From a virus (Duplodnaviria; Caudoviricetes), in the IMG/VR virus record IMGVR_UViG_3300042339_001064, positions 16,674-80,673 of that record: a stretch of 64,000 nucleotides of DNA. One strand, 5' to 3'. Shown here piece after piece: positions 1-37,600 of the stretch (its first letter is position 1; the number at the start of each line of letters is the position of its first letter). The notes beneath the pieces are model-generated. The model was given only the letters and a program-made list of their open reading frames with translations. It was not told the origin of the DNA and ran no database searches. The position numbers were made by a program, and so were the translations under genes.

Positions 1-3000
1 GATAGCAATGGTAATACTACAAATTATTATGTTATAAATGAAAATATTCCTTTAGTAGAAGATAATCTTATTTTTTCTTATGAATATATAGATGGTAATG
101 AACCTAAACTTTTAAATAAAAGTATAGTTTTAAATTTTGAAAATTTAGATGTTTTATATCCATATATAAATGTAGGATTTATAAAAACTGTAGGTGGAGT
201 TTCTACTTCTTTTTTATTTAAAAAGAAACAACCAGTAACTTCTGAATTAACTGTAGTTTATGAAGGAGATACTATTTTTACTGAAACTGTAGATATAAGA
301 GAAATCTTAGTTAAAAGAGCATTTTATTTATCTGCTAAAAGTGGATTAATATATAATAATAGATTATTACTGGCAGGAGTTAATGGTAAAAGAAATGTTG
401 ATTATCAACAATATGCAAATGATATTACTGTTAAATATGTAACAGGAAAAATTACTATAAATAAAACTAAAGGTTATAAAAACCCAGAACATGTTATTCA
501 TCACAAATCTTGGATGAGAGATGAAAATTATATGTTAGGTATTGTTTTAGAATTTGAGGATATGTCAGAATCTGCTGTATTTCCTTTAATTAATAAAAAA
601 TATACTCCTTTTCCAAATTGGAATGGAGAAAACCCACAAACTAATGATACAGCATTATGTTGTACAGATAATAGAGTTTATTGGAAAGAAGTTAATACTG
701 CTAAAAGAACTGCATATAATGCATTTGCTAAAAGTCTAAGCACAACAGATTTTTGTTCAGGTACTATTGATAATGATAATAATACTATTCGTTCTGAAGG
801 ATACTTAGGTTATTTTGAATCTGAAGAAAGATACCCTATAATTCCTAGATGTAATGTAGGTCCATTTAATCCTACTACTTATAATGAGAATAATTATATG
901 TATCCTACGGAAGTCATTGGTAACAAATTATATGGCAAACATATTACATTATTTAAAATGCCTGATTCTACTATTGAACCTTTTCATAATAATATAGTAG
1001 ATGATTTTGCTATTGAAGAAAATAAAAATAGATATGATAGTAAATATGATAGTTTAGAAATTTATCCTTTAGGATTAAAACTAGACAATGTTAAAATGCC
1101 TACTTTAGAAGAGACAGGAGGAGTTAGAGTAACAGGTTATAGATTAGTTTATGTAAGAAGAGATGCTTATAATAAATCTATTCAAGCTAAAGGGTTTTTT
1201 GTAGAAACTTTTACCAATGATAAATATGGTACAGAATATATTTTTCCAAAACATAATGTAAACTCTGGTGCTAAATGGGATTACTTTTCAAATCAATATA
1301 ATCCTGATTTAACTACTTCTAATACTGTTACAGATTTTGTAAAACAATGTGGGTATGGTGAACATTATGATAAAGCTTTAATGTTTTATGGAGGAAATAC
1401 TATGGCAGTTCAAGGGGGTATAAATATGAACCATGTTAAAATAGAACAACAATATAATACAACAGGATATTATTTAGATTCTATTGATGGCCAAAATGGT
1501 TACAGATCTTTAGCTAATAGTGGAGATAAAGTTTTAGATACTTCTACCTTTTTAGATAAAGATGGTAGATTAAGAGGAGCTGCTATTCAAATTTATAATA
1601 TGTACAATTATGGATATGTACAATCTGATAATATAAGTATAGATAGAACAAATGGTTATAAAAATAGATCTTTATTTTATAATTTTAAAAATATTTGTGC
1701 AGAAAATTATTCTTATGTAAAAGATAATGTTATTTTAAATAAAATTTTAGGAGCGGAATATTCTCTTGTAAATTTTTATAGAGAAAGTGGAGTTTTTGTT
1801 TTATTAAATAAACCAACAGATTTATCTTTTAATCATAATGGAAATTTTTTTAATTCAGATACTAGTGCTAAAAAATGCAATTGTACTACATTAACAACTA
1901 ATAAAATTTTCTTTGAACTAGATGTACCTGTAGTTTTAACTACAGCAACAATTTCATCAGATTACTTAACAAGTCCAACCACTTTTCCAACTGCTTTAAC
2001 AGGTTATCCTAATAATACTGAATTTACTATTATTAACACAGGAGGGGTTTCTCCATTTGATGCAGGAGATAAATATAAATGGAATTCAGTTGCAAATAGA
2101 TTAGAAAAAACTTCAAATTTTTATAATCCAGTACCAGCAACCCCTGTGCCTTCTACAGGTTTTGCAACTTTAAGATTTAGAACAGAGACATGGATTAACC
2201 AAACTTTTACAGTTGCAGAAACTAGTGGTCCTCCTTGGGGAACTCTTGTAAATTATTCTAATCCTGCATTTCCTGTCGGATCAGTTTTAACTATAACAAA
2301 TAATCCTGGGGGTGCTTTTACTAATGGTATGGTTTTTTCTGTAGTTAGTACCACTCAAATAAGATGGTTAGCACCTTTTGGAGGTTCTTTTTCAAATGGA
2401 ACAGCATCTTCAACTGTTTCTTTTACAGCTACAAGTCCTTCAGGAAATAGTGAACAATATTTTTTTGAAAATTATTTAGATAATGCAACTTCTAATAATA
2501 TATTAAATAGTTGTAATGAGGGTTATATTTATTATGGTTCCTTAAAAAATAATCTTCCTAGACAATATGGAGCAATACAAGATATGTTTTTTATTGATAC
2601 AGGATTAAAAGCTTGTGCTGGTCAAACAAGTGTTACAGGTTTTTATGGAGATAGTTTTATTAACACTTTTTCTTTTATTAGAACAGGTGTTACAGGAATG
2701 TTAGAAGATTCTTATATTAATGATAGTATAGGAGCTAAGTGGATGACAAAATTTGATCCAACTTTTAGAATTCAAAATATTATAGCTAACAATAAAGGTT
2801 ATTTACTTTCATTATATTTAATACAAAAAGCTAATGTAACTCTTATTAATTCTGTAATGGAATCTGATTATAATTTAGATTTAAGATATGAAGGACCTAC
2901 ATTTAATGAAATTTATTACCCTAAATTAGCTAATGGAAAATATAAATTATTTTCTAGTAAAACAAGAGAATATGCAGAAGATTGTTTTTTAAATAGTTAT

Positions 3001-4401
3001 TTTTATCAAATTATTTGTGCTCAAGATGGAGATAATTGTGCTAATTATTCTATGTTTGTAGAGTATGATGATTCTTTTAGAAATTTTCATGATAATATTA
3101 TTCTTATGAATAATGATTATAATGAATTAAATGGATTAAGATTTAACATATTTAAACCTATAGATGAAACTTATAAAACTTGCGAATGTGATAATCAATA
3201 TGATAATAGAATTATAGTTTCTACTGCAGATAATCCTGCTGTACCAGAAAGTGGATTCTCTAAATTTTTAGCTAACAATTTTATAACAGTACCTGCTGCA
3301 TATGGAAATATTACAAATCTTTTACAAGAAAGTAATATTATATATGCTCACACTACAGATACTATGTGGAAAATACAAGTATTAGAATCTCAATTACAAG
3401 CTAATAATAATACTATATATGTTGGAACAAGTGATATATTAAGTACTCAACCTTTAAACTTATTTATATCTAATGAAGGATATATGGGTTTACAAGATAA
3501 AAGATTTACTTTTCAAAATAATTATGGCTACTTTTTTGTTGATCTAAAAAATCAAAGTATAAACTTATTGTCAGGAGGAAAACTAGATGCTATTTCTACT
3601 TATGGTATGAATAGTTTCTTTAAAAATAATTTTAATGCTTATTATAATTCTTATAGTCCATTATTACCTTTGGCTGATATAGATATTACTTTTGGTTTTG
3701 ATTATAGACATAAAAGATTATTATTTACAGATCGTAATAATGATTATACCATTTCTTATTATCCAGAAGATAAAGCATTTTATTCTTTTCATTCTTATAA
3801 GCCAATAGCTTACTTACAAAATAGAGATACATTCTTTACTCAAGATGAAGATTATAAATTATATTTACATGAAGATAACTTTAATTCTTATAGAAAATTC
3901 TATGGAGTTAATTATCCTTCAATGGTAGATGCAGTATTTACATATCATCCTTTAATTTACACTACATTACAAAATGTAGGAATTAAAATGGATTGTTATA
4001 AAAATGTAAATAACCAACTTATCTTAGTAGATGAACCCCCTACAAGTATTTCAGTTTGGACTGATAGACAACATAGTGGAGAAGTAATGTTAAAGACTCC
4101 TATTAATGCTAATTACATGAAGAATGTTGTATTAAATAATCAACCACATAACATTATTAATGGTACTATATTTTGTAACAGTTTAATGAACTATGTAGTT
4201 GACAGTAATTTAAATTTCTTAGTAGGAGATATTTTTCCTTACCCTAACTCAAATGTTTCATTATCAAAGGATTGGACAAAAATTGATAGATTAGAAAATG
4301 GATATTTTAATTATAGAGTTAATGTAGATAATAAAGAATTAGAAAACTTAAAATTTATACTTAAATTTACACTCCTCAATTACAATATATCCATGCGTTA
4401 A
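1..4401 (+). CDS. Tail stabilization / muzzle-like virion protein (5'-truncated; frame is open from base 1)
   Basis: Frame 1 has no stop from base 1 (DSNGNTTNYY...) to TAA at 4399-4401, so the ATG at 514 is internal. Beta-rich sequence, with C-terminal motifs 'ISTYGMNSFFK', 'GFDYRHKRLLFT' and 'TISYY...FYSFHSYKP' resembling P22 gp10-like/crAss tail stabilization proteins. Located just upstream of the cargo genes, as in crAss-like phages. Confidence 0.65.
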   Translation, partial: DSNGNTTNYYVINENIPLVEDNLIFSYEYIDGNEPKLLNKSIVLNFENLDVLYPYINVGFIKTVGGVSTSFLFKKKQPVTSELTVVYEGDTIFTETVDIREILVKRAFYLSAKSGLIYNNRLLLAGVNGKRNVDYQQYANDITVKYVTGKITINKTKGYKNPEHVIHHKSWMRDENYMLGIVLEFEDMSESAVFPLINKKYTPFPNWNGENPQTNDTALCCTDNRVYWKEVNTAKRTAYNAFAKSLSTTDFCSGTIDNDNNTIRSEGYLGYFESEERYPIIPRCNVGPFNPTTYNENNYMYPTEVIGNKLYGKHITLFKMPDSTIEPFHNNIVDDFAIEENKNRYDSKYDSLEIYPLGLKLDNVKMPTLEETGGVRVTGYRLVYVRRDAYNKSIQAKGFFVETFTNDKYGTEYIFPKHNVNSGAKWDYFSNQYNPDLTTSNTVTDFVKQCGYGEHYDKALMFYGGNTMAVQGGINMNHVKIEQQYNTTGYYLDSIDGQNGYRSLANSGDKVLDTSTFLDKDGRLRGAAIQIYNMYNYGYVQSDNISIDRTNGYKNRSLFYNFKNICAENYSYVKDNVILNKILGAEYSLVNFYRESGVFVLLNKPTDLSFNHNGNFFNSDTSAKKCNCTTLTTNKIFFELDVPVVLTTATISSDYLTSPTTFPTALTGYPNNTEFTIINTGGVSPFDAGDKYKWNSVANRLEKTSNFYNPVPATPVPSTGFATLRFRTETWINQTFTVAETSGPPWGTLVNYSNPAFPVGSVLTITNNPGGAFTNGMVFSVVSTTQIRWLAPFGGSFSNGTASSTVSFTATSPSGNSEQYFFENYLDNATSNNILNSCNEGYIYYGSLKNNLPRQYGAIQDMFFIDTGLKACAGQTSVTGFYGDSFINTFSFIRTGVTGMLEDSYINDSIGAKWMTKFDPTFRIQNIIANNKGYLLSLYLIQKANVTLINSVMESDYNLDLRYEGPTFNEIYYPKLANGKYKLFSSKTREYAEDCFLNSYFYQIICAQDGDNCANYSMFVEYDDSFRNFHDNIILMNNDYNELNGLRFNIFKPIDETYKTCECDNQYDNRIIVSTADNPAVPESGFSKFLANNFITVPAAYGNITNLLQESNIIYAHTTDTMWKIQVLESQLQANNNTIYVGTSDILSTQPLNLFISNEGYMGLQDKRFTFQNNYGYFFVDLKNQSINLLSGGKLDAISTYGMNSFFKNNFNAYYNSYSPLLPLADIDITFGFDYRHKRLLFTDRNNDYTISYYPEDKAFYSFHSYKPIAYLQNRDTFFTQDEDYKLYLHEDNFNSYRKFYGVNYPSMVDAVFTYHPLIYTTLQNVGIKMDCYKNVNNQLILVDEPPTSISVWTDRQHSGEVMLKTPINANYMKNVVLNNQPHNIINGTIFCNSLMNYVVDSNLNFLVGDIFPYPNSNVSLSKDWTKIDRLENGYFNYRVNVDNKELENLKFILKFTLLNYNISMR

Positions 4402-7400
4402 TGGCTAAAGGTAAAAATAAACTTAATAAAACTAATTCTTCAGGGTGGTTGGATAACTACTCTGAGGAATTTTCTATTAGTAAATATGCTGATGGAGATA
4501 GAGTTATTGACCCTTTACTTTCTCCTGGACAGCTAGCTCAACTAAATAAATTAAAAGAATTATCAAAAAAACTTCCAAAAGATGAAGAAATTCTTTTAAA
4601 ACAAATGCAAAATAAAAGAGCTCAAGATAAATTATCTGTTTCAAAAGAAAAAACTACTTCTGATAAATTAAAAAAGCTTGTTAGAGAGCCTGTTACTACA
4701 TTAGCAGACCAAGCTGAATATAATAATTTTGATTTATTATTTGGTATTCCAGGAAGAGTAGGTACAGGTATATATAGTACTGTTGGTAATTTATTAACTC
4801 CTTCTACTTATCCTATATTAGGAAAAGGTGCGGTTAATTTAGTTAGTAATGCTTTAACAGATGAAAATGTTTATGAGGGAGTTAATGAAGATGCTAGTAG
4901 AATATTAGGAGAAGGGTTAGATATTTTAGATATAATGGATATGGGAGTGGCTTTAAAGTCTTTGCCTTATTTAAATAAATATATACCTAACCCTAAACAA
5001 CTATCTAGTTCTAGTATAATTTCTTCTGTAGCTGATGTAAGTGATAAACTTTTAAAAAAACAATCAGTACAAAAATTTTTAAAAACCCCTCGTTTTGATT
5101 TAGGTCGTAAAGAGTTTTTACCAGAATCTTTATCTTTTGATTATCAAGATTTAGGTGATGAAAATTTTGCTGTTTTATTAAAAGACCCTAATAATAAAAT
5201 CCAAGCAAATCTTTCTTTATTTAAAGAATATGAAGAATGGTATAAGCCTAGAATGATTACAGTAAAAGAAAATCTTCAAGGACATAAAATACAAGATCTT
5301 TTATATCAAAAAGGTATTGAAGAAGTTAGAAAAAAAGGCTTAAAAGGTATTAGAAGTGGGGATTATTTAATGGAACCAGAAAAAACTATAAAAGCTCAAA
5401 ATAGATTTATTAAAGAAAATTTACTGCCTGATGCTAGTACACAAAATAAAAATTTACCTATAGTAGGATTATTAAACCATAAAAATCCAAATTTATATGA
5501 AGATTTTTTTGCATATTATGCTACTATACCTAAAGAAATAAAATATAAACATTCTATAAAAGAATTGTATGATAGTTTTAAAAATATACTGCTAGGTAAT
5601 AAATCTACAAAAGCTATAGAGTATTTAAATGGAGGAGAAATAAATCAATATGAAGATGGAGGCAAAGTTAAAGATAAAAAAAGCACATTATCTAAATTAA
5701 AAAAAGCCTTATCTTTAAAAGAAAACTTAGGTAACTTAGATACTAAAGAAGGATACTTTACTCCTTTAAACCAACTTTTAAAAACAGCAGTTGGTATAGA
5801 AGGAAAAGATTATAGTAATGAACCTATGGAACCTCTTGCTAGAGAGCAAGATGCTCTTAGAATGTATTTAGGGTTGCCTTCTAAAACAGGAGCATTTGAG
5901 CAAACTGCTCCAAATAAATATAGAATAAGAGATTATAATAAACTTTATCCTGACACTCTTTTATCTGATGAAGCTGTAAGAAATTGGGGAGTACCTAATG
6001 AAGATGGAGTACCTGACCCTGTTAACCCAGCATTTGATTTATATCCTTATGATGATTTTGTTATGGGAAAACATTATGTAACTAAAGGTAAAGATGCTAA
6101 AGGAGAATATTTAAAATATTCAGATAGATTTGATTTTGATCCTACAAGATATGCAAATCAGTTTATTGATAAAAATTTCAATCCAAGTGTAGGTAAATAT
6201 TTAAAAAAAGCAACTCCCGTTTTAGATAAATTAGAAAGTTTAATGTTTAACCCTTTTGAACTAGAAGATAAAATTTATTATGACCCTAAAACAAAATTAA
6301 GGTCTGATATTATTTTACAACAAAATGCACCAAAAGTATATCCTGGACAACCAATGGCTACTCCACCAGAGTTTGCTGATGGAGGAAAAGTAAATGCCCC
6401 TATTTATGTAGATAATCGTAATGATCCTAGATTAAAGAAGTATCAGGATAGCTTGGCTTTATTTAACGCATCCAATATGGGCAGAGTGAATAGTTTGTTA
6501 AAACAGGGGTATAAGTACGACACAAAGGGTTCTGTTAAAAATAATAGAGAACTTACTCCGTCTCAGAAAAAGCAATATCAAAAAGCAATGGGAGTTAATC
6601 CAAATAAGTTTTTACAGAATATAATTCAAGATGGAAACGATGGGATAAAGGATAATCGAGTAGGGGGTAAAAAAGATTTAAAAAAACAGGCTGAATTAAT
6701 GCATGGGCAAATAGCTCCTATAGAAATGGCTGATTTGTTCGATAGTTTATGGAGAAATTCAGAATATTTAAAAGGGGACTTAAAAAATCCAATGCCAGGA
6801 TTTGATAAAACTGATAAAACTTACAGAAAAAACCCTAATTATGGGAAGCCTTTAGCAAAAGATAAGGAGGGAGAAGTTATTAGAAATTTCTTTTCTGTGC
6901 CTATTTACAAAAAGCCAGTTCAACCAGTTATTTTAAATGTAGGGGATAACTCTACAATAAACACAACTAAAGGAAAAGTAAATGGCAAAGTTGCTCCAAA
7001 CGATGTAAAAGGCTCCAAATTAATACAAGTTAGAAAGGAAATAAAGCCAGAAAACACTAATTTCAACGTAAATGTAAACGGAGAATTTAGCACTCCAGAA
7101 GATTATGTGGAGTCAGTAGTTGAACAAATGCCTATTCAGCAAACTCCAGATTTCAGAAAATACCTACAACCAAGAGGATTTTCAAGACAAGGACAAAGCG
7201 GAGAAAGACAAGGTGAAAGTTTTTATGATGCTAATGGGAAAATGACAGGGCAAATAATTAATGGGCAATATGTCCCTACGGAATATGGAAAGTTTCTTGA
7301 AAGTGGAATGTCGGAAGATGAATATTTAAATCAAATACAAGCATTTGCAAAAGGAGGAAAAATAAATGACGATAAGGGTTATTTAATATCTAACCTAAAT

Positions 7401-9578
7401 AATTTTACACCTAAAAAAATAATTAATAGTAATTATATAACTACTAATAATATGGCTTTTCCAGTAGAAGCTAATGGAGTAGTTTTATACCCAAATACAG
7501 GAGACTATGTATTTTCTACAGATAAAGTAACAGAGATACCTATAATAAAAAATGGAGGAAAAATAAATAATGATATGAAGAAACCAACAAAAATGTTACC
7601 TAAAGGGGAAAACGCAAAAAATCCTATAAAAACAGTACGAAAAGTTTTACCAGAAGTAATTATAACTCCTGAAAAAAATAACACAAACAATGAAGCTGAC
7701 TGGATGGATTATTTGTCAGATGCAGGTCTAGTAGCTCAACTAGCAGGAATAGGGGCTTCTACTACAGGAGTAGGAATATTAGCTGGAGGCCCCTTAGCTT
7801 TAGCAGGATATGCAATGGGAATGCCTGATGCAATAAGAGATACTTACAATGCATATAATGAAGGTAATTATGGAGATGCAGCTTTAAGTGCTACTGGTTT
7901 AATTCCAGGGATAAGGGTATTAAACAAACTTACTAGATTGCAAAAAGCATCTGATTTAGTAAATAAAGCTAATAAATTTAATAAAGGTATGGCAGGTGTA
8001 AATGCAGTAGAAACTGCAGTGGATAGATACCAAAACCCTTATTTTAAATATCAAGGAGGAGGATACCTTAACTATCAAGATAGTTATAAAGGTTTTGGAG
8101 TAGGTCCTCAATTATATCAAGATAATAGTTACTTTAGATCTGTTATGCCTACTAACATTGAAAATATGGAAGAGGAAATTAACAAGCCAAGTGTATTTTC
8201 AGGAATTAATGATGTTCTTGGTGCTGTTAATCAAGGAGTTAGTCAAGCAACAGGATTACTAAGTCAGTTTGGTAATATGTCTGGAAATATGCCTCAAATA
8301 ATGCCTGATATAAGTAATTGGCAAGCACCAGGTACTGCTCCAAAAACAAATGAGCAATTAAATTTTGAAAATAGTGATGCTTATTTAAATTGGCAAAATG
8401 ACCAAAAATTAAAACAAGCAGGGTTATTTGATTCTTTTTATTCAAATCAAAATACTCAAACAGGTACAGGATTTATGGGAAATACTCCTACTGTTAAAAC
8501 TGTTCCTTCTCCTAATAATTTTAATTGGAATATTAATACTCCTTCATTTAATCTTCCTACAGGTAAAAATGGAGGGTATTTAAAAAAATATCAAAATGGA
8601 GGAATGATGGATATGCTACCTGTAGGGTTTCCTGAATATATACATAAAAGTAATGTATTTCATGAAAATTATAATCCTGTTCCTAGAGTACACTTTAGTG
8701 ATGATACTACTCCTTATGATATGGGAGTTAATCTAAATGATTTAGTAAACATGAATGGGGGCAGAATAAATAAATATCAATATGGGGGAATGATGCCTTT
8801 TTATTCTAGACAAAGAAGCCCTAGGGTATTTAATAGTAATGCTAATAGAGCTTCAGCAGCTGATTTAGAGTCAGCATATGCTAATGATTTTATGCATACA
8901 AAAGTAAGAAAAGATAGACAATCTTTTGAAGATGATAAAGTAGATTGGGGTTTTATGGATTGGGCTAAAGAACCTGTCGGTGCTTTAACAGGTGTATTAA
9001 GTACAGTACCTATTGTAGGAGATATTACCCAAAGTGCATTAGGAGATTCATTCTTAACTAGAACAGGTGGTTATGCAGTAGGTAAAGGAGTTGGAAATGT
9101 AGGAATGGGTGCTGCAAAAGTTATTGGTGGTGCTGCTACAGGAAATGTAGGAATGATTGGTAGTGGTATTGGAGATGTAGGAGAAGGAGTAGGCAGCACT
9201 GTTGGAACTTTTCAAGCTAAAGATGCATTATCTAATTATGATAAATCAGGATATGTTTCAGGTAATAGAATGGTTAATGCTTCGCAAGACTTTGGAAATA
9301 TGATGGATACTGCTTCAGGTTTATTTGGAAATATTAAAGGGGGAGTAGGAATGGTTAAAAATATGGGCGGATTAAAAGGTATGCTGGGCAACATGAAAGG
9401 GGGCGCAACAGGTGCAAAAGGATTTGGAAACATTATGGGTAAAATAACAGGATTTGGGCAAGATGGTGGCTATATTGATTATGACTTTAATAATATAGAA
9501 GAGTATAAATATGGTGGCAAAGTTTTTCAAAAAATTAATAAAAAACAAAATAAAGCTGGTTGGTTAGACCAACTATAA
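4401..9578 (+). CDS. Modular virion cargo (ejected) protein with repeated phi-x-x-GG motifs; contains GNAT-like and glycine-rich membrane modules
   Basis: 1725-aa ORF, TAATG-coupled to the upstream gene. No Cys seen. About 13 [YF]xxGG-type motifs, Gly-zipper hydrophobic segments, and a GNAT-like motif A 'ITVKENLQGHKIQDLLY'. Confidence 0.6.
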   Translation: MAKGKNKLNKTNSSGWLDNYSEEFSISKYADGDRVIDPLLSPGQLAQLNKLKELSKKLPKDEEILLKQMQNKRAQDKLSVSKEKTTSDKLKKLVREPVTTLADQAEYNNFDLLFGIPGRVGTGIYSTVGNLLTPSTYPILGKGAVNLVSNALTDENVYEGVNEDASRILGEGLDILDIMDMGVALKSLPYLNKYIPNPKQLSSSSIISSVADVSDKLLKKQSVQKFLKTPRFDLGRKEFLPESLSFDYQDLGDENFAVLLKDPNNKIQANLSLFKEYEEWYKPRMITVKENLQGHKIQDLLYQKGIEEVRKKGLKGIRSGDYLMEPEKTIKAQNRFIKENLLPDASTQNKNLPIVGLLNHKNPNLYEDFFAYYATIPKEIKYKHSIKELYDSFKNILLGNKSTKAIEYLNGGEINQYEDGGKVKDKKSTLSKLKKALSLKENLGNLDTKEGYFTPLNQLLKTAVGIEGKDYSNEPMEPLAREQDALRMYLGLPSKTGAFEQTAPNKYRIRDYNKLYPDTLLSDEAVRNWGVPNEDGVPDPVNPAFDLYPYDDFVMGKHYVTKGKDAKGEYLKYSDRFDFDPTRYANQFIDKNFNPSVGKYLKKATPVLDKLESLMFNPFELEDKIYYDPKTKLRSDIILQQNAPKVYPGQPMATPPEFADGGKVNAPIYVDNRNDPRLKKYQDSLALFNASNMGRVNSLLKQGYKYDTKGSVKNNRELTPSQKKQYQKAMGVNPNKFLQNIIQDGNDGIKDNRVGGKKDLKKQAELMHGQIAPIEMADLFDSLWRNSEYLKGDLKNPMPGFDKTDKTYRKNPNYGKPLAKDKEGEVIRNFFSVPIYKKPVQPVILNVGDNSTINTTKGKVNGKVAPNDVKGSKLIQVRKEIKPENTNFNVNVNGEFSTPEDYVESVVEQMPIQQTPDFRKYLQPRGFSRQGQSGERQGESFYDANGKMTGQIINGQYVPTEYGKFLESGMSEDEYLNQIQAFAKGGKINDDKGYLISNLNNFTPKKIINSNYITTNNMAFPVEANGVVLYPNTGDYVFSTDKVTEIPIIKNGGKINNDMKKPTKMLPKGENAKNPIKTVRKVLPEVIITPEKNNTNNEADWMDYLSDAGLVAQLAGIGASTTGVGILAGGPLALAGYAMGMPDAIRDTYNAYNEGNYGDAALSATGLIPGIRVLNKLTRLQKASDLVNKANKFNKGMAGVNAVETAVDRYQNPYFKYQGGGYLNYQDSYKGFGVGPQLYQDNSYFRSVMPTNIENMEEEINKPSVFSGINDVLGAVNQGVSQATGLLSQFGNMSGNMPQIMPDISNWQAPGTAPKTNEQLNFENSDAYLNWQNDQKLKQAGLFDSFYSNQNTQTGTGFMGNTPTVKTVPSPNNFNWNINTPSFNLPTGKNGGYLKKYQNGGMMDMLPVGFPEYIHKSNVFHENYNPVPRVHFSDDTTPYDMGVNLNDLVNMNGGRINKYQYGGMMPFYSRQRSPRVFNSNANRASAADLESAYANDFMHTKVRKDRQSFEDDKVDWGFMDWAKEPVGALTGVLSTVPIVGDITQSALGDSFLTRTGGYAVGKGVGNVGMGAAKVIGGAATGNVGMIGSGIGDVGEGVGSTVGTFQAKDALSNYDKSGYVSGNRMVNASQDFGNMMDTASGLFGNIKGGVGMVKNMGGLKGMLGNMKGGATGAKGFGNIMGKITGFGQDGGYIDYDFNNIEEYKYGGKVFQKINKKQNKAGWLDQL

Positions 9579-9589
9579 ACATATAAATT

Positions 9590-12334
9590 ATGAAAGAATT
9601 ATTATTACAAATAGCAGGAGTAAAAACAGAAGCTGAGTTTTATAAGAAATTTCCAACACAAGAAGCTTTCTTCAAAGCATACCCTGAAGCTCAAGAAATT
9701 ATTGCTCAATACCAACAACAAGAAATGATGGCTAATGCTCCAGAAAATTCTGAAGAGCAAATGATGGGTACTGAAGAAGAAATGGTAGCTCAAATGGCAA
9801 TGGGAGGAATGATTAAGAGAAAAGATGGTTCTTACTCTAAAAGAGGGTTGTGGGACAATATAAGAGCTAATAAAGGTTCTGGTAAAAACCCTACAAAACA
9901 AATGTTAGAGCAAGCTAAAAAAATCCAAGCAGAAGAAATGATGTATGGAGGAATGGTTGATTCCTACTATAATGGAGGAGGAATAAACAACCCAGGATTT
10001 AAAGCTTTACCTAAATCTGTGCAAGAAAACATAATATCTAATATGTCTATGGGTGGTATGGTAGATGAGTATGGAAATGGAGGGTACACTGTAAGAAAGA
10101 GTAATGATAGAAAAGGTAAAACACACGTTGTTACTGGACCTGATGGTACTAAAAAATACTTTGGTGATCCTAAAATGGGAGAAAAAAGCAAATCTAAATA
10201 TGGTAAAGAAGCCTTTTATGCTAGACATAAAACTAATTTAAAAAACAATCCTTACTTTAGAGCTTATGCTAGATCTACTTGGGCTGATGGTGGAATTATT
10301 CCTGAAATGGAAGAATTGATGTTAGCTGGAGATTATTATAATATGGGAGGATATGTAGAATATCCTACAATGTATCCTGGGGGAGGCATGATAGCAGGTC
10401 CTATGATGGGTTATGAAGATGATGAATTTATGTATGCTATGGGAGGAGGAATTAATATTAACCCTGCTAATAAAGGTAAGTTTACTGAATGGGCTGCTAG
10501 TAGAGGAATGGGAGTACAAGAGGCTGCTAATAAAGTAATGGCTAATAAAGATAAATATTCTACTAATGTAGTACAAATGGCTAACTTTGCTAGAAATGCT
10601 GCTAAGTGGAAAAAACAAGATGGTGGAGAAATAGATGCATTAGATACTTTGTATAATAGAATGCCAGTGCAAACAGAGTCTTATCAAGGTCAACCTGAAC
10701 AAGTAGTATTACCTGATGGTACTATTCAATCTGTTAATGCTACTCAATCTCATGAAAGTATGTCTGATAATGAAATTACAGATGTATTACCTACAGGATC
10801 TCATATTCAAAGTTCAAGAAATAAATATACTCCAGCACAATATCAACAACTAATTGATATGTTTACACCTGAAGTAGCAAAAGAAAGAATGCTTCAAATA
10901 GAACAAATTACAAAAGGAAAAAATAAAAAAATATCTCCTGCTGAAATTTCTGAGTATGCTAAAAATAAATATCAAAAAAAATCAACACCTAATTCTTTTA
11001 ATACTGATAAATTAAAAGAAAGTAATAAACAATCATTTGTAGACTTAAGTATTCAAATGAATGACTTAATAAAAGCTGGTAAAGAATTGGCTGAAGGTCA
11101 AATGCAATTACCTATGGAAAATCCTATGATGGCTTATGGGGGGATGGTTAATAAATATCAAGATGGTACAAACAGCAATGTAAAAATAGTTACATATCCT
11201 GGGGGTAAAACAAAAACTCCTACAGGAAAAGAAAATAAATATAATAAAGATGCATCTTATTTAACCCAGTGGGAAGATTTAATTCCAGGTATTTCAAAAA
11301 AGTCTAATATAGAAGCTCAAGAATTAATTTACGATTATACATTAAAAAATAATCCTGAAGAAATTAAAAATATGTGGAGTAGTTATGGTTTAACTTCACA
11401 AGGTATGAAAGATCCTAGGTTTAAAACAAAGTATCCTACAGGTACAATTGATTCTTCTACATTAACTCCAGAAGAACTTATGTCTTTACGTTCTGCTTAT
11501 GCAGATAGTTTTTTTGGTGCAAGACAACTTGAACCTAAAAGAAAAGCAACTCCTGTAACTACCTCTGTAACTCCTCAAACTCCTGCAGAAAAAGCAGCTA
11601 ATTTAGAATTAGCAAGGATTAATGCAGTAGCTGGTGCAAAACAAATGCCTATGCAAAATAGGTTTAATTATGGACTATTAGAAGGACAATTAGGAAGAGG
11701 TCTTGCAGCAAATGAAGCTTATACAAATGCAGCAATGGATTTAGATCCTTTATATATAATGGAAACTCCTGATACTTATATTAGAAGTAGAAAGAATGAA
11801 ATTCCTATAGGAAACATTCTTTATAATATAGAAAGAGCTCAAAGAAATTCTGCAAATGCTTTAGCAGCACAAACAGGGGATTGGAGTACTTTAGCTAGTA
11901 ATATTGCTAATGCAGGGGCATCAGCTATGAATCAAGTGGGAGATACTTTAAGTGCTTTAAATACTCAAAATGTAGGACTTTATAACACAACACAAGGTCT
12001 TCAACAAGGATTACTAGCAGATAATATGGATGTAAGAAATCAAAATCTTACAGCTGCTCAAAATTTAGCAAATCTTAAAAGAAACTTATTGGGTAAAAAA
12101 GCTGTTACAGATGCAGAGTTGTACTCTCAATATGTTAAAAGTATGGGTGAAAATACTCAAAAAGAACAAAATCAAAAATTAGCATTATTAGATATAATGG
12201 CTGCAAAACCAGATATGTTTAGAGGAGAGCAAGGACAAAGATTTGCTAATCAAATTATGGGTACTACAGGTTCTTTTAATAATCCTTTTGCAGGGTCTCC
12301 ATTAGACTTTCTTTTTAATAATATTAGTAGGTAA
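9590..12334 (+). CDS. Virion cargo protein with phi-x-x-GG motifs and small basic modules
   Basis: 914-aa Cys-free ORF with MAMGG/MMYGG/YYNGG/WADGG/YAMGG/KQDGG/MAYGG motifs. Contains an 'ININPANKGKFT...ANFARNA' module and an 'E...PDG...HE' segment recalled from crAss-like structural proteins. C-terminus is Gln/Asn/Ala-rich and helical. Confidence 0.6.
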   Translation: MKELLLQIAGVKTEAEFYKKFPTQEAFFKAYPEAQEIIAQYQQQEMMANAPENSEEQMMGTEEEMVAQMAMGGMIKRKDGSYSKRGLWDNIRANKGSGKNPTKQMLEQAKKIQAEEMMYGGMVDSYYNGGGINNPGFKALPKSVQENIISNMSMGGMVDEYGNGGYTVRKSNDRKGKTHVVTGPDGTKKYFGDPKMGEKSKSKYGKEAFYARHKTNLKNNPYFRAYARSTWADGGIIPEMEELMLAGDYYNMGGYVEYPTMYPGGGMIAGPMMGYEDDEFMYAMGGGININPANKGKFTEWAASRGMGVQEAANKVMANKDKYSTNVVQMANFARNAAKWKKQDGGEIDALDTLYNRMPVQTESYQGQPEQVVLPDGTIQSVNATQSHESMSDNEITDVLPTGSHIQSSRNKYTPAQYQQLIDMFTPEVAKERMLQIEQITKGKNKKISPAEISEYAKNKYQKKSTPNSFNTDKLKESNKQSFVDLSIQMNDLIKAGKELAEGQMQLPMENPMMAYGGMVNKYQDGTNSNVKIVTYPGGKTKTPTGKENKYNKDASYLTQWEDLIPGISKKSNIEAQELIYDYTLKNNPEEIKNMWSSYGLTSQGMKDPRFKTKYPTGTIDSSTLTPEELMSLRSAYADSFFGARQLEPKRKATPVTTSVTPQTPAEKAANLELARINAVAGAKQMPMQNRFNYGLLEGQLGRGLAANEAYTNAAMDLDPLYIMETPDTYIRSRKNEIPIGNILYNIERAQRNSANALAAQTGDWSTLASNIANAGASAMNQVGDTLSALNTQNVGLYNTTQGLQQGLLADNMDVRNQNLTAAQNLANLKRNLLGKKAVTDAELYSQYVKSMGENTQKEQNQKLALLDIMAAKPDMFRGEQGQRFANQIMGTTGSFNNPFAGSPLDFLFNNISR

Positions 12335-12353
12335 CATTAAAATATATTAAATT

Positions 12354-13676
12354 ATGGCACAAAGATTTTCACCAAATACTTCAGTAGCTGAACAAATTTT
12401 ACTTAATCCTACATTTGCCAATATAGATTTTGCAGATTTTCAAGGATTAGATATGAATCTAATTGACAGAAATGCTGAATATACTCAAAACATAGCTAAT
12501 AAGAGATTTGAGGAAATGGTACAAGCACAAACTAAATTATTAGAAGATGTACAGTTACATAAAAGATTTGATTATCTTGAAAAAGATTTACAAAATAAAT
12601 TAGCATCTGTAATAGATAATGCAGGTAATGTTCAATTATCTGATAATGCTAATTTTAATAAATTAAATACTAATTTAATTTCATTAAAAGCTGATCCTCA
12701 ACTAAGAAAAGCTGTATATTCTTCTGAAGAAGCCAGAAAAATGCAAGAAATTTTAGAAAAAGATCCTACTCTTGAAAAAAGACCTTGGGATGCACCTGCA
12801 GCAATTAACTATAAAAAATTTTTAAAAGGAGAAACTAATGATTTTGAGTTAACTCCTATTTATAAAAATGTTGACTTACCATCATTTTGGTATAATGAGT
12901 TTTTTAGTAAATTGCCTGCAGATCAACAAGAAGTTTTAAGAGATTATGGTACTTATGGATTAGTTCAAGCTAAACAAGAAGGAAGAAATGTAGATCAATT
13001 AATAGACGCAATAAAAGATTTTAAAAATTTTACAATTAAAAATAATCCTGAAATTGTATCTCATTTAGAAAGAAGAGGAAATTATGAAGTTACAACTAAC
13101 CCAAATGTAAATAAAGATCAATTTATTAATGATTATATAGATGAAAGTGCAAGAGCTGCTGCAAGTAAAGTTGCTGGAATAAGTAATACTATATCTAGTG
13201 TAGGAATAAAGCCTGATGCAACTATGGGTTTAGAATGGAAGAGAGAAAATAGAATGCAAATAGCTCAAGATAAACAAAATGAATTTTATGCTCCTTATGA
13301 TTTTCAAGGAGGAGTACTAGTAAAAGGAAACAAACCTGTTACAGGAGCAATGGAAAAGGAGGCTCTTAAAAATGGAGTAGCAGCTTATCTAATTCCTAAA
13401 GATGGAAAAGTTAATACAACTAGTACCTCAACAGTAGATGGAAAAAATGTAACTGTACAAAATAAAAAATTAGTAGACTTTAATTCATTATATGTAACTA
13501 CTGTAAATGGTCAAAATATTTTAAAAGGAAATACAAAAACAGGAAAACCTATTGATCCTATTCCTGTGCCTGCAAATGTAATGTTAGATGTTCTTAATCA
13601 AATGGGAGGTAGAGGTAATTCTACTACACAACAACCTGGTTTAAATTGGGACCCTGTTACACAAACTTATAAATAA
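12354..13676 (+). CDS. Putative internal virion/ejection protein
   Basis: 440-aa helical, Cys-free ORF between the cargo genes and the giant genes; assignment is by synteny only. Confidence 0.5.
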   Translation: MAQRFSPNTSVAEQILLNPTFANIDFADFQGLDMNLIDRNAEYTQNIANKRFEEMVQAQTKLLEDVQLHKRFDYLEKDLQNKLASVIDNAGNVQLSDNANFNKLNTNLISLKADPQLRKAVYSSEEARKMQEILEKDPTLEKRPWDAPAAINYKKFLKGETNDFELTPIYKNVDLPSFWYNEFFSKLPADQQEVLRDYGTYGLVQAKQEGRNVDQLIDAIKDFKNFTIKNNPEIVSHLERRGNYEVTTNPNVNKDQFINDYIDESARAAASKVAGISNTISSVGIKPDATMGLEWKRENRMQIAQDKQNEFYAPYDFQGGVLVKGNKPVTGAMEKEALKNGVAAYLIPKDGKVNTTSTSTVDGKNVTVQNKKLVDFNSLYVTTVNGQNILKGNTKTGKPIDPIPVPANVMLDVLNQMGGRGNSTTQQPGLNWDPVTQTYK

Positions 13677-31636: not shown

Positions 31637-34600
31637 ATGTCATTAGCCTGCGATTTAAATATAAATATTGCCAAAAGAGGTATTTTAAAAGGAATTTCTA
31701 ATAAATATATTCCTGAAGAATATGAAAATAATCAATCTGATTTTAAAGATGATGAATTACAAATACCCCTTAAAAATAAAAATAAAGATGAAGTAGCAGA
31801 AATATTTAAACCTATTTTATCAACTATAGAAAAAGACTATAAAGGTAATATAAAAGCAGAAATAGTTAAAAATTCTATACTTGATCCTTTTTATATAAAA
31901 TTTAATGTTAATAGAAATTATATTCTTGACCAGTTACAACTAACTGTAAAAGATATAAATGAACTTCAAACTAAAGAAACTATTAATACTAAAATTGTAG
32001 ACCCTTTGTTAAATGTACAAAAAGGGCTTACAGATCCCTTAATTAGACAAAAATATTTTTCTGATGGAGATACTACTACAGATAAAGAAGTATTAACTAA
32101 GATTGCAAATTCTAGTCACCCTTTAAGTGGATTAGCTAAACAATTAATTCCTTTTAGTAAAGGAATAAAATTTAATTTATTACCTATTAATTATATTAAT
32201 GTTAATAATAATAAATCTTCTGGAGTATATAAAAGTTTTGGAATAAATAATGAAGAAATAATTGAAATTGCAGAATTTGCAAAGTTTAGAGGTTTAGGGT
32301 CTGAACCTACAATTATTCATGAAATTCTACATGGATTAACTTTTAATTGGTTAGATTCTGTAAATCAATCAGATCCATTATATAAAGAATTTGAAAGACT
32401 TTATAATGAAACAATTTCAAAAATAGGTATTGCTAATAATTATGGTTTAACTAAAATTGAAGAATTTGCAGTAGCTTTATTTACAGATGAAGAATTTATT
32501 AATAAAATTAAAGAATTACCTTCAGATAATCCTACTAAATATGTTAATTTATTTGAAAATATATTAAATACTTTATTAAAAGTATTTAATATAACTGATT
32601 CTAAAAGTACTTTATATACAGATGCATTTGCAATTGTTTCAAATATAATTAATATTCAAAAAGAATTAGAAAACATTTTTAATATTCAAAAAGAAATAGA
32701 AGAAGCTTTTTTACCTACTCTTGATGAATTTGAAAACTTACAAGATGATATAGATAATTATTATATTGATGATTATTCAGAATATACACCTGAACTTCCT
32801 GAAGATACTTTTCAAGAAAATGTTTTAGAAGAAAAAACTGTCATAGAAAGTAAATCAACTATAAATCCAAATTTAATTCCAGATAATATTGAAGAACAAT
32901 TTAATGAGTTTGAATCTTTAAGAAATAAAGATGCAGAAACTACTGAAGAGTTTGACAAACAAATTTTATATTCTTTAATATTACCAAATGTTAGTAAAGA
33001 TAAATTCTTTGAAATATTTTCTCAAAACAATCCAGAAGAATTTAATAAATATAGGCAAAAAGAAGTTAAAAGAATTATTAATAACTTTGCAGAAAAATTT
33101 GGAATTACTATTGAGCAAATTAATCAATACCAAGATAGATATGTTTTAGCTAATAATAAAACATTAAGTTATAATGGTGTAGCTAATTTAGCAAATAAAA
33201 CTATTAAATATTTAGAAGGAGATGAGGCTGCATTAACAGAAGAAGTAGCTCACTTTATGGTAGCTATGTTACCTAAAACAAGTCCTGAGTATGTTAATTT
33301 AAAAAATTATATTAGTAGAACTCCTGAATATCAACTTTATTATGAATCTTACTTAGAAGTTTATAATGGAGATGTAGATAAAACTGAGGAAGAAATAATG
33401 GGTAAGGTTGTAGCTAATAGTTTATTAGGAGTTACAGAAAATGTACCTTTATCTTTAAAAAGTCTTATTACTTCAATTTTAAACTACATTAATAACTTTT
33501 TTAATCCAGAGTATAGAAAAGCTTTTCAAAGAAGTGTAGATAATATTAATCATTTATTTTTTACAGAAAATTTTGATACTAATTTTTCTGAAGCTAATAT
33601 AACTTTTGATGAATTATATAGTTTAAAATTTACAACTTCTAATGATGAAAAAGTATTTAATTCTTCTACAGATCAAATATTAAATAATATTTTACAAAAT
33701 TTAAAAAACCAAAGACAAAGGTTTATTGAAAATAAACAAACTGATTTAATTAAAAGTATTGATACTTTAATTGATATAATTACAGAAAAAGATTCAAATA
33801 TTGATAATTCTGATAGAATTATTAATTATATACAAATGTCTTTATTAGAAATACAAAAAGTTGAACAATCTTTAAATAATTTTGAAAAAAGTGGTATTTT
33901 ACAAGATTTAGAAAAGAAAAATTTTAATAACTTAACAAAAGAACAACAAGAAGCTCAAACTCAAGAAGATAGAGCTAACCATTTACAATATGTAGCTGCA
34001 GCTATTACAACTTTACAAAATTTAAATTCATTAATTACTTTAATTGAATGGAATTTTAAAGGATTTAATAATACTTTTCAATCTTTATCAGATTATAATA
34101 AAATTATAGATACTTTACCTGATTCTAATGAAAATAAAATATTTTCAGAAGCATTAAAATTAACAAAAGCTACATATAGAGATGCAAAACTTGGAACTAT
34201 AAAAGGAGTTTATCAAGATCTTTCTCAAAAATTATTAGATGTAACTTTTAAAACTTTAAATACTCAAGATCAAAAAAACTTTTTAGAATTAACACAAACA
34301 AATTTAACTCCTAATGTTAAAAAACAAGAAGATGTAAATAATGATATATCTCCTTTAGGTACAGTTAAAGATCTTATTACAGGAGAATTTAATATATCTT
34401 CTTTTAAAGAAAATATAATGCCTTTAACTTTCCAAAAAGATGTTTATTTAAGATCTGTTGACAATGCTAATGCAGTTTTAAGGCAATTTGCATTAATGGC
34501 TTCAGCAAAAGATGTCCATGAATATAATTTATTTCAAGAAAAATTAAATCAATTAGGTGAATTTAATGAAACATGGCTTTCAGCAAAAGATGAAAAAGGT

Positions 34601-37600
34601 AAACTTACATTTAAGTTATTGCAAAAATATAATTTTAAAGTATTTAAAAAAACTTTATCTCAAAAAATTATTAAAGATAATTTAGCAACTATTATAAATC
34701 AAAATGTTGTATTAGATGAAGTAGAAAATAAAGATCCTAAAATATTAAAATCTATTATTAATAAAAAATATAATTCGCCAAATGCAATAAAAGATGATAT
34801 TACTCAATTATATATTAATAAAAAAATATCAAAAAGTTTATTTTTATTTTTAAATAATTATATTAATGGCTACGAAACATTATATACTTTAAAATTAAGT
34901 GAACAAAATAATTTATTATCTAATAATAATCAAAATATATTACAAAAATATAAAAATGATTATATATCTCAATTAGAAAATAATTTAGCAAATTTAAATT
35001 TTAATAAAAAATCTTTACCTTATTTTAATAATAAATTTGCTTTTACTGAAAATACTATTAGTGCATCACAACTAGCAAGTGTTGTTCAAAATATTATAGA
35101 TAATAAGAAAGCTGCTTTAATTAACAAATTTGTAGTAGTTCCTAAAACTATAAATGGTTTTGAAAATCCTGTTTACACAAATCAAATGGCTTATGTAGAA
35201 GGATTAATGAATTATTTTAAAAATAATATAGGGTATTTACAAGATATTGAAGGTGAAATTAAAACTGATAATATTAATTTTTTAATGTTAGGTGATGAAT
35301 ACTTTTTTAATTTATCAGATAAAAAATCTTTAGCAGGAATTAATTTTGTAGACAATGATTATATTAATTTAGAAAAACTTGCTCAATCAAATAATCCTAA
35401 AGAAAGAGAAATAGCAACATTAAAATTAACTGCTATTGAAAAAATAAAACAAGATAATTTAAAACATAATACGCCTTCTAATGATTTAGGAGGAGTATTA
35501 ATAAATAATAGTGCTGCATTTTTAAGTAATTCTAAAGAATATAGAGAATTTTATAATAGAATATTTAGAATGGCTTTTCCTTTAGCTTTAACATTAGCAT
35601 CACCAGTTAATCCATTAGCTAGTGTTATGTTATATCTTACTTATATAGGAGCATTAGATACTTTAATTTATAAACCTTTTTATTTTTTAAAAAATGATAC
35701 AGAATCTAATTTATTAAAAAGAGCATATAATGCTTGGAAACTAAGTTTATCAGAATTTTTTAACAGAGATTTAAGAGAAAAAAATATAGAAAATAATGCT
35801 GAATTAGAAAAAGAAGTTGCAAAAGGTTATAAAAAAATAATTTCTAACTTAATTGAAAATATAAAAAATAAATTAAATAAAAATAGAATTAATGATAATA
35901 TTCTATTATTAGGAGAATATAAAATTCCTAAACCTTTTGAAGTTGAAAGAAATAATAGATTATTATTATCTACAGATTTTTTATCTAACCAAAAAAGCAT
36001 TACTCAAGCTAGATATAATTATGAAACAAATATAAGATGGGAATCTTGGATTAGAATGACTGCTGATTATAATGAAACAAGGGCAGGTGTAACTAATTCA
36101 AATATTATTAATACAATTAAAGATAGGTATTGGTTTAATAAATTTTTTAAACCAACAAAATCATTAAGTGCTTTAAGGTTTACTTTAGGAATAATATCTA
36201 GTAAATTACTAAAAGGAAACATACAATCAGCAATAATGAACTTAACTATTGGTCAATTTGGAGTATTTTTACATACAAATCCTAGTACTTTTGCTAAAAG
36301 TGTTATTAATATGTTTACTCATAATACTGAAATGTTATATATGGGTACTAATTTAAACAATGTTGTAAATAGTTTTATAGGTAATTTTGGGAATCCTTCT
36401 AATTCAACTACTAGATTATCTTTTTTTGATGCTTTAAAAAATATGTTTACAGGAAGAGATACTAATGTAGCAAAATATAATAATAATCTTATAAAGCATA
36501 TTTCAAAAAATTTAAGAAAAAATAGAGGTACAGGTTTTACAGAATTTGATGAAAGTGAATCTATCTTAACAAGGGAATTTGGTTTAACTAATACTCAAAT
36601 GCTTAATAATCTTGGTGAAAAGTTTATTGAAGAAAATACAATATTTCAATATTTAAATAGTAATCCAATTATAGATGAAAATGGAAAGCCTATAAAAAAT
36701 TTAAAAAAATATTTAAAAATTGAAAATGGTTTAATAGTTTTAGATAGAACTAAATTGCCTAAGAATTTATATTTAAAAAATACTACTAATTTAGCTTATA
36801 AAAATTATTATAATTTAGATATAGATTCTAATGTTAATATTGAAAAAGCTAGTCCTAAAGATTTAGGAATTAACCCTTTAACTGATGTAGAACTAAATGA
36901 ATTTTTAAATATTACTATGTCAAATGATATTTCTAATTTAATGGAAAAATCTCAAGGGGTGTATAATATTTTTAATAAAGCTTATTGGAGAAATACTGGA
37001 ATAGGATTAATATTATTTCAATTTAAAGATTATGTATTAACTTCATTAACAAATACTATAGGTTCTAGAAAAATTAAAAATAATTTTACTAGTTATGAAA
37101 CAAGTATTTTAAATTCTTTAACTAAGGCTTTTGATAGAATGGCTATTTCAGGTTATAGATTTATTGATAAAGATGCTAAATTTAATAAAGATGTAGATCA
37201 AAATTTATTAATTTTAAATAATGTATCTAAAATACAATTTTTTAGAGAATTAAATTTTTTAAGAAATCGTTTAGTTTCTTTTTTAACTCAATCTGAAGGT
37301 AAAATAAATAAAAAATTAAAAGAATTAGCTAATAATAATGAAAAATTTAGAAAAGATACAAATAGAAAAACAAGTTCTAATATTTTATTAAATTTACCTA
37401 TAAATTGGTATTTAACAAATATTAAAGATAAACCAATTGATGATGTTAATTTTAAAATATCTGGAGAATTTAATTTAGATACTAATAATCCTAATTTTAA
37501 TAAACAACTTAATTATATTAAAAGTTTAATTGATAAAAAATTTAAAACAAAAGAAAATTTTACTCAAGCTGATTTAGATATATTAACTAAATTTGATATT

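Follow-up and report, generated by a model that had tools for sequence, protein, structure and literature searches.

The 64,000-nucleotide stretch of DNA analyzed here (the window; positions 16,674 to 80,673 of the IMG/VR virus record IMGVR_UViG_3300042339_001064) encodes two adjacent proteins, P1725 and P914, which are strings of modules separated by a short Gly-Gly motif termed the joint. The joint is real and conserved and marks module borders, and modules are gained, lost, and swapped from joint to joint. Proteins of this kind are known as the crassvirus cargo protein C1 and as polyvalent proteins, while a universal joint with joint-to-joint cassette exchange appears to be undescribed in the searchable literature. 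The joint is read here, with a probability of about 0.5, as a hinge and helix stop in a cassette-built cargo chain that is ejected from the virion.

Joint motif and module borders

A first-pass annotation of the window had listed 25 joint pentapeptides in the two proteins; all are present, and every coordinate is right. The canonical pattern [YFWM]xxGG is found in 18 of the 25, five show xxxGG without Y, F, W, or M at position -3 (IKNGG, GKNGG, NMNGG, GQDGG, and KQDGG), and two lack the second glycine (YADGD and YQDGT). Counted by a regular expression with overlaps allowed and compared with 5000 composition-keeping shuffles, [YFWM]xxGG occurs 8 times in P1725 (shuffle mean, 2.07; standard deviation [SD], 1.41; highest of 5000, 8) and 12 times in P914 (shuffle mean, 0.98; SD, 0.98; highest, 6). 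Enrichment relative to the rest of the window proteome is confirmed, with 20 of the 23 hits lying in these two open reading frames (ORFs), a density of 20 per 2,639 aa compared with 3 per 17,444 aa in the other 36 ORFs (44-fold). The complete relative G001 (119,980 bases; P914 homologue 68% identical in the best segment) shows 41 hits per 4,301 aa in its four homologous ORFs, compared with 14 per 33,186 aa in the other 112 (22.6-fold). Homologues of P1725 and P914 in six IMG/VR relatives are equally motif-rich, and proteins at the C1 position of gut Crassvirales are motif-rich too, less canonically. The described pairing of joints about 9 aa apart is seen at GG residues 411/420, 1391/1400, and 1453/1462 of P1725 and 120/129 and 155/164 of P914; family-wide, consecutive GG runs are most often separated by 5 to 7 residues.

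A phmmer search of P914 against 1.84 billion representatives yields 2,896 proteins at E ≤ 1e-3 (cluster representatives), and a search among shorter proteins adds a further 2,844 relatives. The best-matching stretch, mostly module C (P914 residues ~160 to 240), lies at nearly any position in proteins of 133 to 2409 aa. The most widespread module is module C, to which the best match falls in most of the 150 hits listed. For dipeptide, context, and breakpoint statistics, 252 family proteins were retained. GG is their commonest dipeptide (3,267 occurrences; runner-up KK, 1,693), and 2,485 unique GG contexts give the consensus [YMFW]-[AEKQ]-x-G-G-x-[IVTM]. Position -3 is occupied by Y (24%), M (20%), F (11%), or W (7%), in total 61% compared with a background of 13%. 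Position -2 is dominated by the helix formers A, E, K, and Q and the second residue after GG by I, V, T, and M; proline is depleted at -4 to -1, and charged residues are nearly absent at the second position after GG. In high-scoring segment pairs (HSPs) of 25 to 60% identity, conservation is 71% for GG, compared with 22 to 43% for the flanks, 46% overall, and 64% for isolated glycines. Homologues of P1725 carry ART-PolyVal and DUF5872 domains, ART-PolyVal being found in 2 of 30 (precomputed Pfam) and in one G001 ORF.

The motifs had been described as falling between unrelated domains. The description applies to the window, to its close relatives, and to the family of thousands, and domain boundaries in homologues mostly coincide with the motifs, as shown by breakpoints and module comparison. 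In an all-against-all BLAST, 58% of 69,122 internal HSP ends fall within -2 to +3 of the end of a GG run, compared with 11% expected at random placement and 1 to 10% for 15 other dipeptides; the pairs of HSP ends are not independent, and the effect is large. Among unique breakpoint positions, the share near GG is 30%, compared with 2 to 8%. The alignment of P1725 with 30 homologues of near length, many of which exceed 90% identity across just ~38% of the residues queried (400 to 1070), places 51 of 63 internal breakpoint events within -10 to +5 of a GG end and 17 of 25 breakpoint positions near GG (expectation, 16%; binomial P ~8e-9).

Clean GG-to-GG insertions and deletions separate relatives of 56 to 81% identity. 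The order in the window is ...PPEFADGG/KVN...(324 aa)...FAKGG/KINDD...IKNGG/KINNDMKK (slashes follow GG), and the same border reads PPEFAKGG/KVNDNNGYLISN in L006, PPEFADGG/KTNNDMK in L005, and YLNGG/TINNNMK in G001. In L005 and L006, the next one or two modules are gone, cut exactly from the GG of FADGG, and in G001, YLNGG is fused directly to the segment that in the window comes after IKNGG. The P914 homologues of L006, L004, and L007 show modules swapped or missing from GG to GG: L004 has a DUF5754-type module in place of module C, and module D is deleted in L007. The two divergent G001 copies differ by one 35-aa GG-to-GG unit, which contains module B and is missing from the second copy. In P0127 and P0128, the C-terminal third of P1725 (from YQGGG) is fused to P914 from approximately KQDGG, which indicates a single functional unit that in the window has been expanded and divided between two genes.

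At the DNA level, near-repeats lie at the P1725 joints at 5627/7349/7550 and at 5629/8569/8755/11136, the last position being in P914. No long DNA repeats are found, only near-repeats of 19 to 37 nt with 64 to 89% identity that mirror the conserved residues. The glycine codons within GG runs are mixed, so the constraint acts on the protein and not on the DNA. An RNA or DNA signal at the joints is unlikely, since the near-repeats mirror residues and the glycine codons are mixed. The internal Shine-Dalgarno-like GGAGGA reading was dropped on account of the mixed glycine codons and the lack of long repeats.

Two observations concern the wider family. The 220-aa protein P0119 joins module A, at ...RRADGSY..., to a ribosomal protein L14 sequence (PF00238) that covers its N-terminal two thirds, and the start of module A resembles the L14 segment there; P0119 could be an assembly chimera at a microhomology or a real fusion. 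A second phage group (L019, L023, L026, and L029; IMG/VR contigs of 100 to 131 kb) encodes short, all-mosaic proteins of 400 to 478 aa. These P0013-like proteins have 9 to 12 joints and a conserved C-terminal ...LDVTPEQLQMLKQGGYNFEIID, and their genes are flanked by large same-strand genes, of which the upstream neighbor (799 to 2117 aa) is joint-rich and highly variable in length. Pfam names one DUF5872 domain and nothing else in the neighbors of the P0013-like genes.

Possible roles of the joint: hinge, protease site, or docking motif

P1725 and P914 would represent an expanded two-gene form of the crassvirus C1-type cargo or ejection protein, in which small modules, 20 to 390 residues long and mostly basic, are strung together and each ends in a stereotyped joint. 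The joint would act as a helix stop and flexible Gly-Gly hinge inside a disordered linker, allowing the modules to fold and unfold singly while the chain is stretched through the portal and tail and pushed out before the DNA. The look-alike joints, in P1725 also alike at the DNA level over ~20 to 31 nt, would double as in-frame recombination points; the cassette system would arise from this recombination, and no cutting of the chain would be required.

The AlphaFold model of P914 residues 1 to 360 (38 sequences; mean predicted local distance difference test [pLDDT] score, 68) shows confident modules at residues 1 to 50, 86 to 118, 132 to 153, 166 to 232, and 288 to 342. Nine of its 10 GG sites lie in segments with a pLDDT of <50, and the tenth adjoins one. 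The helix ends 0 to 3 residues before GG at all 5 single joints (DSSP). The P914 modules are mostly basic (+6, +11, and +6), and the short linkers are acidic and rich in Tyr and Met. Read by the general rules of glycine capping, the helix formers at -2, the depletion of proline, the lack of charge after GG, and the modeled helices ending at GG fit a hydrophobic-flanked glycine helix stop in a flexible linker. For the cargo protein C1 of crAss001 (gp45), residues 214 to 245 were solved in the tail barrel and residues 425 to 552 on the portal (Bayfield 2023, PMC10172136). The gp45 model starts at A425, so that its AFGG/W, a single, noncanonical joint, is uncut within one chain. Those authors infer that 179 gp45 residues bridge tail and capsid in one chain and that C1, stretched and partly unfolded, leaves the virion first with the N terminus leading (PMC10172136). 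The same text contains "cleav," "proteoly," and "protease" 0 times and describes neither a joint motif nor cassette behavior; a 2023 review leaves proteolysis unmentioned. The crAss001 chain together with the helix-stop features therefore favors the hinge and helix stop.

Several points weigh against a plain hinge. It needs no Y, M, F, or W at -3, which is conserved across dozens of unrelated modules, and it leaves unexplained both tandem joints merely 5 to 7 residues apart and joints at extreme protein starts (MPSGGYL... and MYFQQGGQ...). The low pLDDT at joints may come partly from poor alignment of mosaic sequences and not from disorder. The helix cap is read from DSSP of one model and general capping rules, and the intact chain of crAss001 amounts to one noncanonical joint and the inference of those authors. 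Conserved residues and codon bias largely account for the DNA near-repeats.

The main alternative, judged less likely than the hinge, takes the joints for protease sites cut after or next to GG. The modules would be released within the capsid or, with greater likelihood, once the chain has been ejected, and at least a dozen small proteins would be supplied by one or two genes. The enzyme would be a zincin-like HExxH domain of the cargo block, which in some relatives lies inside the mosaic protein, or a host enzyme; that [YMFW]xxGG joints are cut by such a co-packaged peptidase (or host enzyme) once the chain is in the cell is proposed only tentatively. The consensus is short, shows residue preferences before and after its invariant GG, and lies in linkers that vary and are probably exposed, all of which is in keeping with a protease site. 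Some module N termini seen as gene starts (MIRREDGSYS... and MANKPNNPSLWS...) coincide with the residue after GG. Among Met-initial family members, 62 of 179 starts align within -8 to +1 of GG, but many starts are gene-caller artifacts on contig fragments, and the count speaks neither for nor against cleavage. HExxH modules are present in 21 of the 252 family members; the majority have none of their own, which speaks against cleavage. Iyer 2017 (PMC5512222) predicts autoprocessing of polyvalent proteins by zincin-like metallopeptidase (MPTase) domains, whereas the virion RNA polymerase of phage N4, with the same kind of domain, is described there as packaged unprocessed. The crAss001 virion gel shows bands at 85, 100, 150, 270, and >300 kDa (Shkoporov 2018), sizes that are compatible with full-length cargo; cutting solely after ejection would be compatible with an intact chain in virions.

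The only candidate protease found in the window is a zincin-like region, residues ~135 to 340 of a 2252-aa ORF. Its HEILH motif lies in model helix 103 to 122 and is followed ~45 residues downstream by E-F-x-x-A-L-F-T-D, both being conserved in the window and in 3 of 3 aligning homologues. The modeled region may bind metal. The AlphaFold model (predicted template modeling score, 0.67; pLDDT, 70) draws on only 6 sequences. In VIA-align, it best matches the PhiM1 ejectosome protein domain 8vb2_A (Z, 9.4; root mean square deviation, 4.8; 155 aligned), followed by SPRTN (Z, 6.3), minigluzincins (5.0 to 5.2), and lethal factor, MATCAP, and ArdC (4.1 to 4.8); Foldseek returns nothing at E ≤ 0.001. 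In G001 (105512 to 110566; L017 5512 to 10566), the P1725 homologue contains a 760-aa insert between duplicated GGEINQYEDGG joints. This insert comprises a zincin-like HELSH...EVRAR module and, by motif reading and with no Pfam match, a kinase-like VAK...DISGNKSN...IDLG part. Both HExxH regions are nearest to LPD23/LPD1 polyvalent-protein clusters in the Atlas (scores, 0.85 to 0.93; leads only).

The first-pass annotation had proposed maturation-protease sites by analogy with adenovirus. Its description of both proteins as strings of unrelated modules with the motif at the borders stands; the proposed mechanism is not supported, in view of the uncut AFGG/W of crAss001, the register, and the outcome of the protease search in G001. 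Adenovirus protease (adenain) and pS273R of African swine fever virus (ASFV) mature polyproteins at GG before any residue X, the adenain site being (M/L/I)-X-G-G with cleavage before X and with M, L, or I at P4. As in the joints, Gly-Gly stands at borders between virion core components that are often basic. In the joints, however, the hydrophobic Y, M, F, or W is located at -3 from the first glycine, one place further out than in adenain sites. The suggested search for the cognate protease beyond the window finds none in G001: among the matches listed, there is no prohead, clan CE, C39, or known Gly-Gly protease family (Pfam). The 31 structural-block ORFs contain no prohead or cysteine protease, the sole peptidase being an M15 cell wall enzyme, and the 52 other ORFs show no maturation or Gly-Gly protease among the matches listed; 3 ORFs spanning locus borders and 21 small ORFs lay outside these scans. 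Peptidase_C48 (PF02902) is found in 0 of 3 relative records with a positive control, other clan CE families not having been searched singly. Proline right after GG is hardly depleted (4.4% versus 5.4%), and zincins are not known for Gly-Gly specificity. RTX-like nonapeptides, choline-binding-type repeats, C39 double-glycine leaders, GlyGly-CTERM, and sortase-type signals were rejected, their consensus or context not fitting the joints.

It is improbable that the joints are short docking or targeting motifs bound by a part of the virion such as the portal wing, the tail-ring proteins, or the capsid interior, or by each other as Tyr/Met "stickers" between Gly "spacers." In either case, the joints would load and arrange the cargo in capsid and tail. 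A motif that is repeated and conserved amid variable sequence, present at N termini and near C termini of proteins, and accompanied by Tyr/Met-rich acidic linkers between basic modules would suit docking, as would the retention of crAss001 C1 at several tail sites and at the portal. However, the resolved docked parts in crAss001 are the modules between joints and not the joints, the number and order of joints vary so freely between close relatives that fixed sites are hard to accommodate, and no partner is identified. That the pattern is a functionless by-product of glycine-rich composition (9.8% in P1725 and 8.6% in P914) or of recent internal duplication, as the near-repeats of 21 to 31 nt common to some joints might suggest, is very improbable given shuffle means of 2.1 and 1.0 versus the observed 8 and 12, the retention of the motif in homologues at 25 to 60% identity while the flanks change, and its position beside dozens of unrelated modules in thousands of proteins.

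Gene setting and features

The window is AT-rich (GC content, 20 to 34%). P1725 and P914 lie directly 3' of a muzzle-like gene, the product of which matches Pfam crAss_MUZ_C at an E value of 3.5e-4, under the curated cutoff. A 440-aa ORF and then three giant ORFs (2530, 3439, and 2252 aa) follow P914. The 3439-aa ORF (21308 to 31627 region) shows an RNase H domain at residues 2359 to 2515 (Pfam E = 1.3e-12), and the 2530-aa ORF shows a weak PD-(D/E)XK match (E = 6.8e-4, under cutoff). The two proteins thereby occupy the slot of the cargo proteins C1 and C2 in crAss001, and tblastn matches of P914 are genes adjoining the muzzle or "stabilization" gene in Crassvirales. Gene position and partial homology thus make both proteins probable cargo. 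Since G001 encodes Crass_capsid (E = 4.9e-65), CrAss_Ring_2, and a P22-type portal (Pfam), the window belongs to a crAss-like phage. Modules A to C have 0 tblastn matches among 50,697 GenBank phage records, so the lineage is uncultured. No usable Pfam or PHROG family is found for P1725 and P914 as whole proteins or nine segments, phmmer against PDB sequences gives chance-level rows only, and Foldseek of the P914 1-to-360 model against PDB gives nothing at E ≤ 0.001.

Table 1. Features of the cargo block and its surroundings (window coordinates)
Feature	Position	Strand	Evidence or remark
Muzzle-like tail gene, 3' part	1..4401	+	phrog_15100 virion structural protein, E=3.6e-18
P1725, putative mosaic cargo-block protein, 1725 aa	4401..9578	+	19 GG runs, 8 canonical joints
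YADGD, degenerate joint	4485..4499	+	After N-terminal basic and GWLD segment
Paired joint YLNGGEINQYEDGG	5622..5663	+	Homology to 8 homologues begins at residue 417
Joint FADGG	6372..6386	+	12 homologue HSPs stop at residues 664-665
Joint FAKGG	7344..7358	+	26-nt near-repeat common to joints at 5627 and 7550 (families D3/D5)
Joint IKNGG	7545..7559	+	GG-bounded indels in relatives and homologue breakpoints
Joint YQGGG	8049..8063	+	Protein start point in relatives P0127/P0128
Paired joint GKNGGYLKKYQNGG	8562..8603	+	31-nt repeat family D1
Paired joint NMNGGRINKYQYGG	8748..8789	+	Repeat family D1
GQDGG ... YKYGG	9456..9518	+	Then short basic tail ending GWLDQL
P914, putative counterpart of crassvirus C1 (gp45), 914 aa	9590..12334	+	10 canonical joints in residues 1-520
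N-terminal helical domain, residues 1-50	9590..9739	+	AlphaFold pLDDT 95-98
Joint MAMGG	9794..9808	+	pLDDT <50; different module after it in L006
Module A (MIKRKDGSYSKRGLWDNIRANKGSGK...), ends in MMYGG	9809..9952	+	Recurs at many family positions; net charge +6
Paired joint MMYGGMVDSYYNGGG	9938..9982	+	Motif scan and AlphaFold model
Module B (INNPGFKALPKSVQENIISNM), ends in MSMGG	9983..10057	+	Recurs in family proteins
Paired joint MSMGGMVDEYGNGG	10043..10084	+	Motif scan and AlphaFold model
Module C (YTVRKSNDRKGKTHVVTGPDGTKKYFGDP...ARSTW), ends in WADGG	10085..10294	+	pLDDT 73-95; net charge +11
Joints YNMGG, YPGGG	10337..10387	+	Acidic Tyr/Met-rich linker; pLDDT <50, residues 240-286
Joint YAMGGG	10433..10450	+	Motif scan; module comparison of relatives
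Module D (ININPANKGKFT...NAAKWKKQDGG)	10451..10627	+	pLDDT 90-97; common to gut Crassvirales C1-position proteins
Conserved element MAYGGMVNKYQDGT	11129..11179	+	Repeat family D1
Zincin-like region of 2252-aa ORF (31637..38395)	31994..32716	+	HEILH at 32318-32332, residue 228

Both termini of P1725 (window 4401 to 4470 and 9519 to 9575) show a basic stretch followed by GWLD, with ...NKTNSSGWLDNY at the N terminus and ...KKQNKAGWLDQL at the C terminus. The terminal GWLD pattern is retained in 4 of 4 relatives (GWLDQL, GWLDEL, and GWLDSL) and may be a terminal docking signal.

G001 carries the cargo block in two divergent copies, one per end (100 to 13243 and 105512 to 119980), with two P914 homologues that are 69% identical and differ in module content. 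This layout is probably an assembly wrapping round across two strains, and the two copies form a natural module-swap experiment. One nonstructural G001 ORF contains a Por_Secre_tail C-terminal sorting domain of the type IX secretion system (E = 7e-11), a hint of a Bacteroidota host; further domains in nonstructural ORFs are ART-PolyVal, SLT, SET, cohesin, and dockerin. A 460-aa structural-block ORF (78844 to 80226) is built from ~12 repeats of ~26 aa (FTNCTGGxxSFGGxGGTASG). This different Gly-rich repeat protein, probably a fiber, has 4 [YFWM]xxGG hits and is the sole other multi-hit ORF there.

Relation to known systems and implications

P914 resembles crassvirus C1 in the position of its gene right after the muzzle gene and ahead of the giant RNA-polymerase-block genes. 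Module D is common to both proteins (P914 residues 285 to 340 and gp45 residues 373 to 423; BLASTP E = 2e-4); a collinear C-terminal stretch reaches an E value of 0.15, and significant coverage is limited to ~6% of the protein. The gp45 protein carries SAYGG, FAEGG, KAFGG, NAFGG, and FAYGG, and both of its solved parts lie between such joints. In contrast to C1, the window has two genes of ~3 times the length with many more modules and joints, among them modules A to C, absent from all GenBank phages searched. The portal-binding domain family crAss_CARG1 (PF25725) has no match in whole P914 (E ≤ 0.01) or in residues 345 to 540 (E ≤ 0.5), and P0104, a family member with modules C and A, matches it at an E value of 2.8e-14. 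On these sequence comparisons, P914 is a putative counterpart of C1 rather than a proven member.

The idea of a polyprotein of packaged effectors, put forward in the first-pass annotation, agrees with the concept of polyvalent proteins, large multidomain proteins packaged and delivered with the DNA, as presented by Iyer, Burroughs, Anand, de Souza, and Aravind (Iyer 2017). Many unrelated domains are present here, with at least five confident modules in P914 residues 1 to 360 and a content that varies between relatives. The signature domains of polyvalent proteins (MPTase, ART-PolyVal, and LPDs) are absent from P1725 and P914 themselves (Pfam). Unlike typical polyvalent proteins, the modules are mostly tiny (20 to 90 aa) and of no known family. 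Iyer 2017 describes no joint motif common to the modules, and "glycine," "linker," and "crAss" occur 0 times in its text.

Three parallels can be drawn with other viruses. The maturation of adenovirus and ASFV core components shares the Gly-Gly borders discussed above and differs in the register of the hydrophobic residue and in the clan CE protease, which is not detected in G001 by the searches described. The internal proteins of T4 and phiKZ are likewise packaged proteins with a short recurring site motif; their head-protease sites end in Glu and need the prohead protease, a family not found in the G001 structural-block ORFs. In the tail-fiber adhesins of T-even phages, glycine-rich motifs and His boxes serve as recombination joints, short conserved motifs that flank variable segments and are points of modular exchange. 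The adhesins differ in being receptor-binding proteins and not cargo, with other motifs and another structure. A literature search covering few subscription journals returned no description of the Gly-Gly joint or of proteolysis of crassvirus cargo.

Crassviruses rank with the most abundant of known phages, and a universal joint offers a simple rule for dividing their "dark" giant proteins into functional units. Small modules could then be catalogued, expressed, and tested individually by the dozen, among them DUF5754- and DUF5872-type modules that also appear in papers on giant viruses. The gain and loss of whole modules between near-identical phages point to a fast turnover of injected functions, as for counterdefense. 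If the joints are cut, a tailed phage would be maturing a polyprotein at sites with a new motif. Should this cleavage take place in the cell, at least a dozen small proteins, encoded by one or two late genes, would be delivered in free form ahead of the genome, and the joints would allow injected effectors to be read directly from the sequences of crAss-like and related phages, thousands of them uncultured. If the joints are uncut, they would show how to design proteins that have to traverse a narrow tail in the unfolded state and would aid the engineering of phage-delivered cargo.

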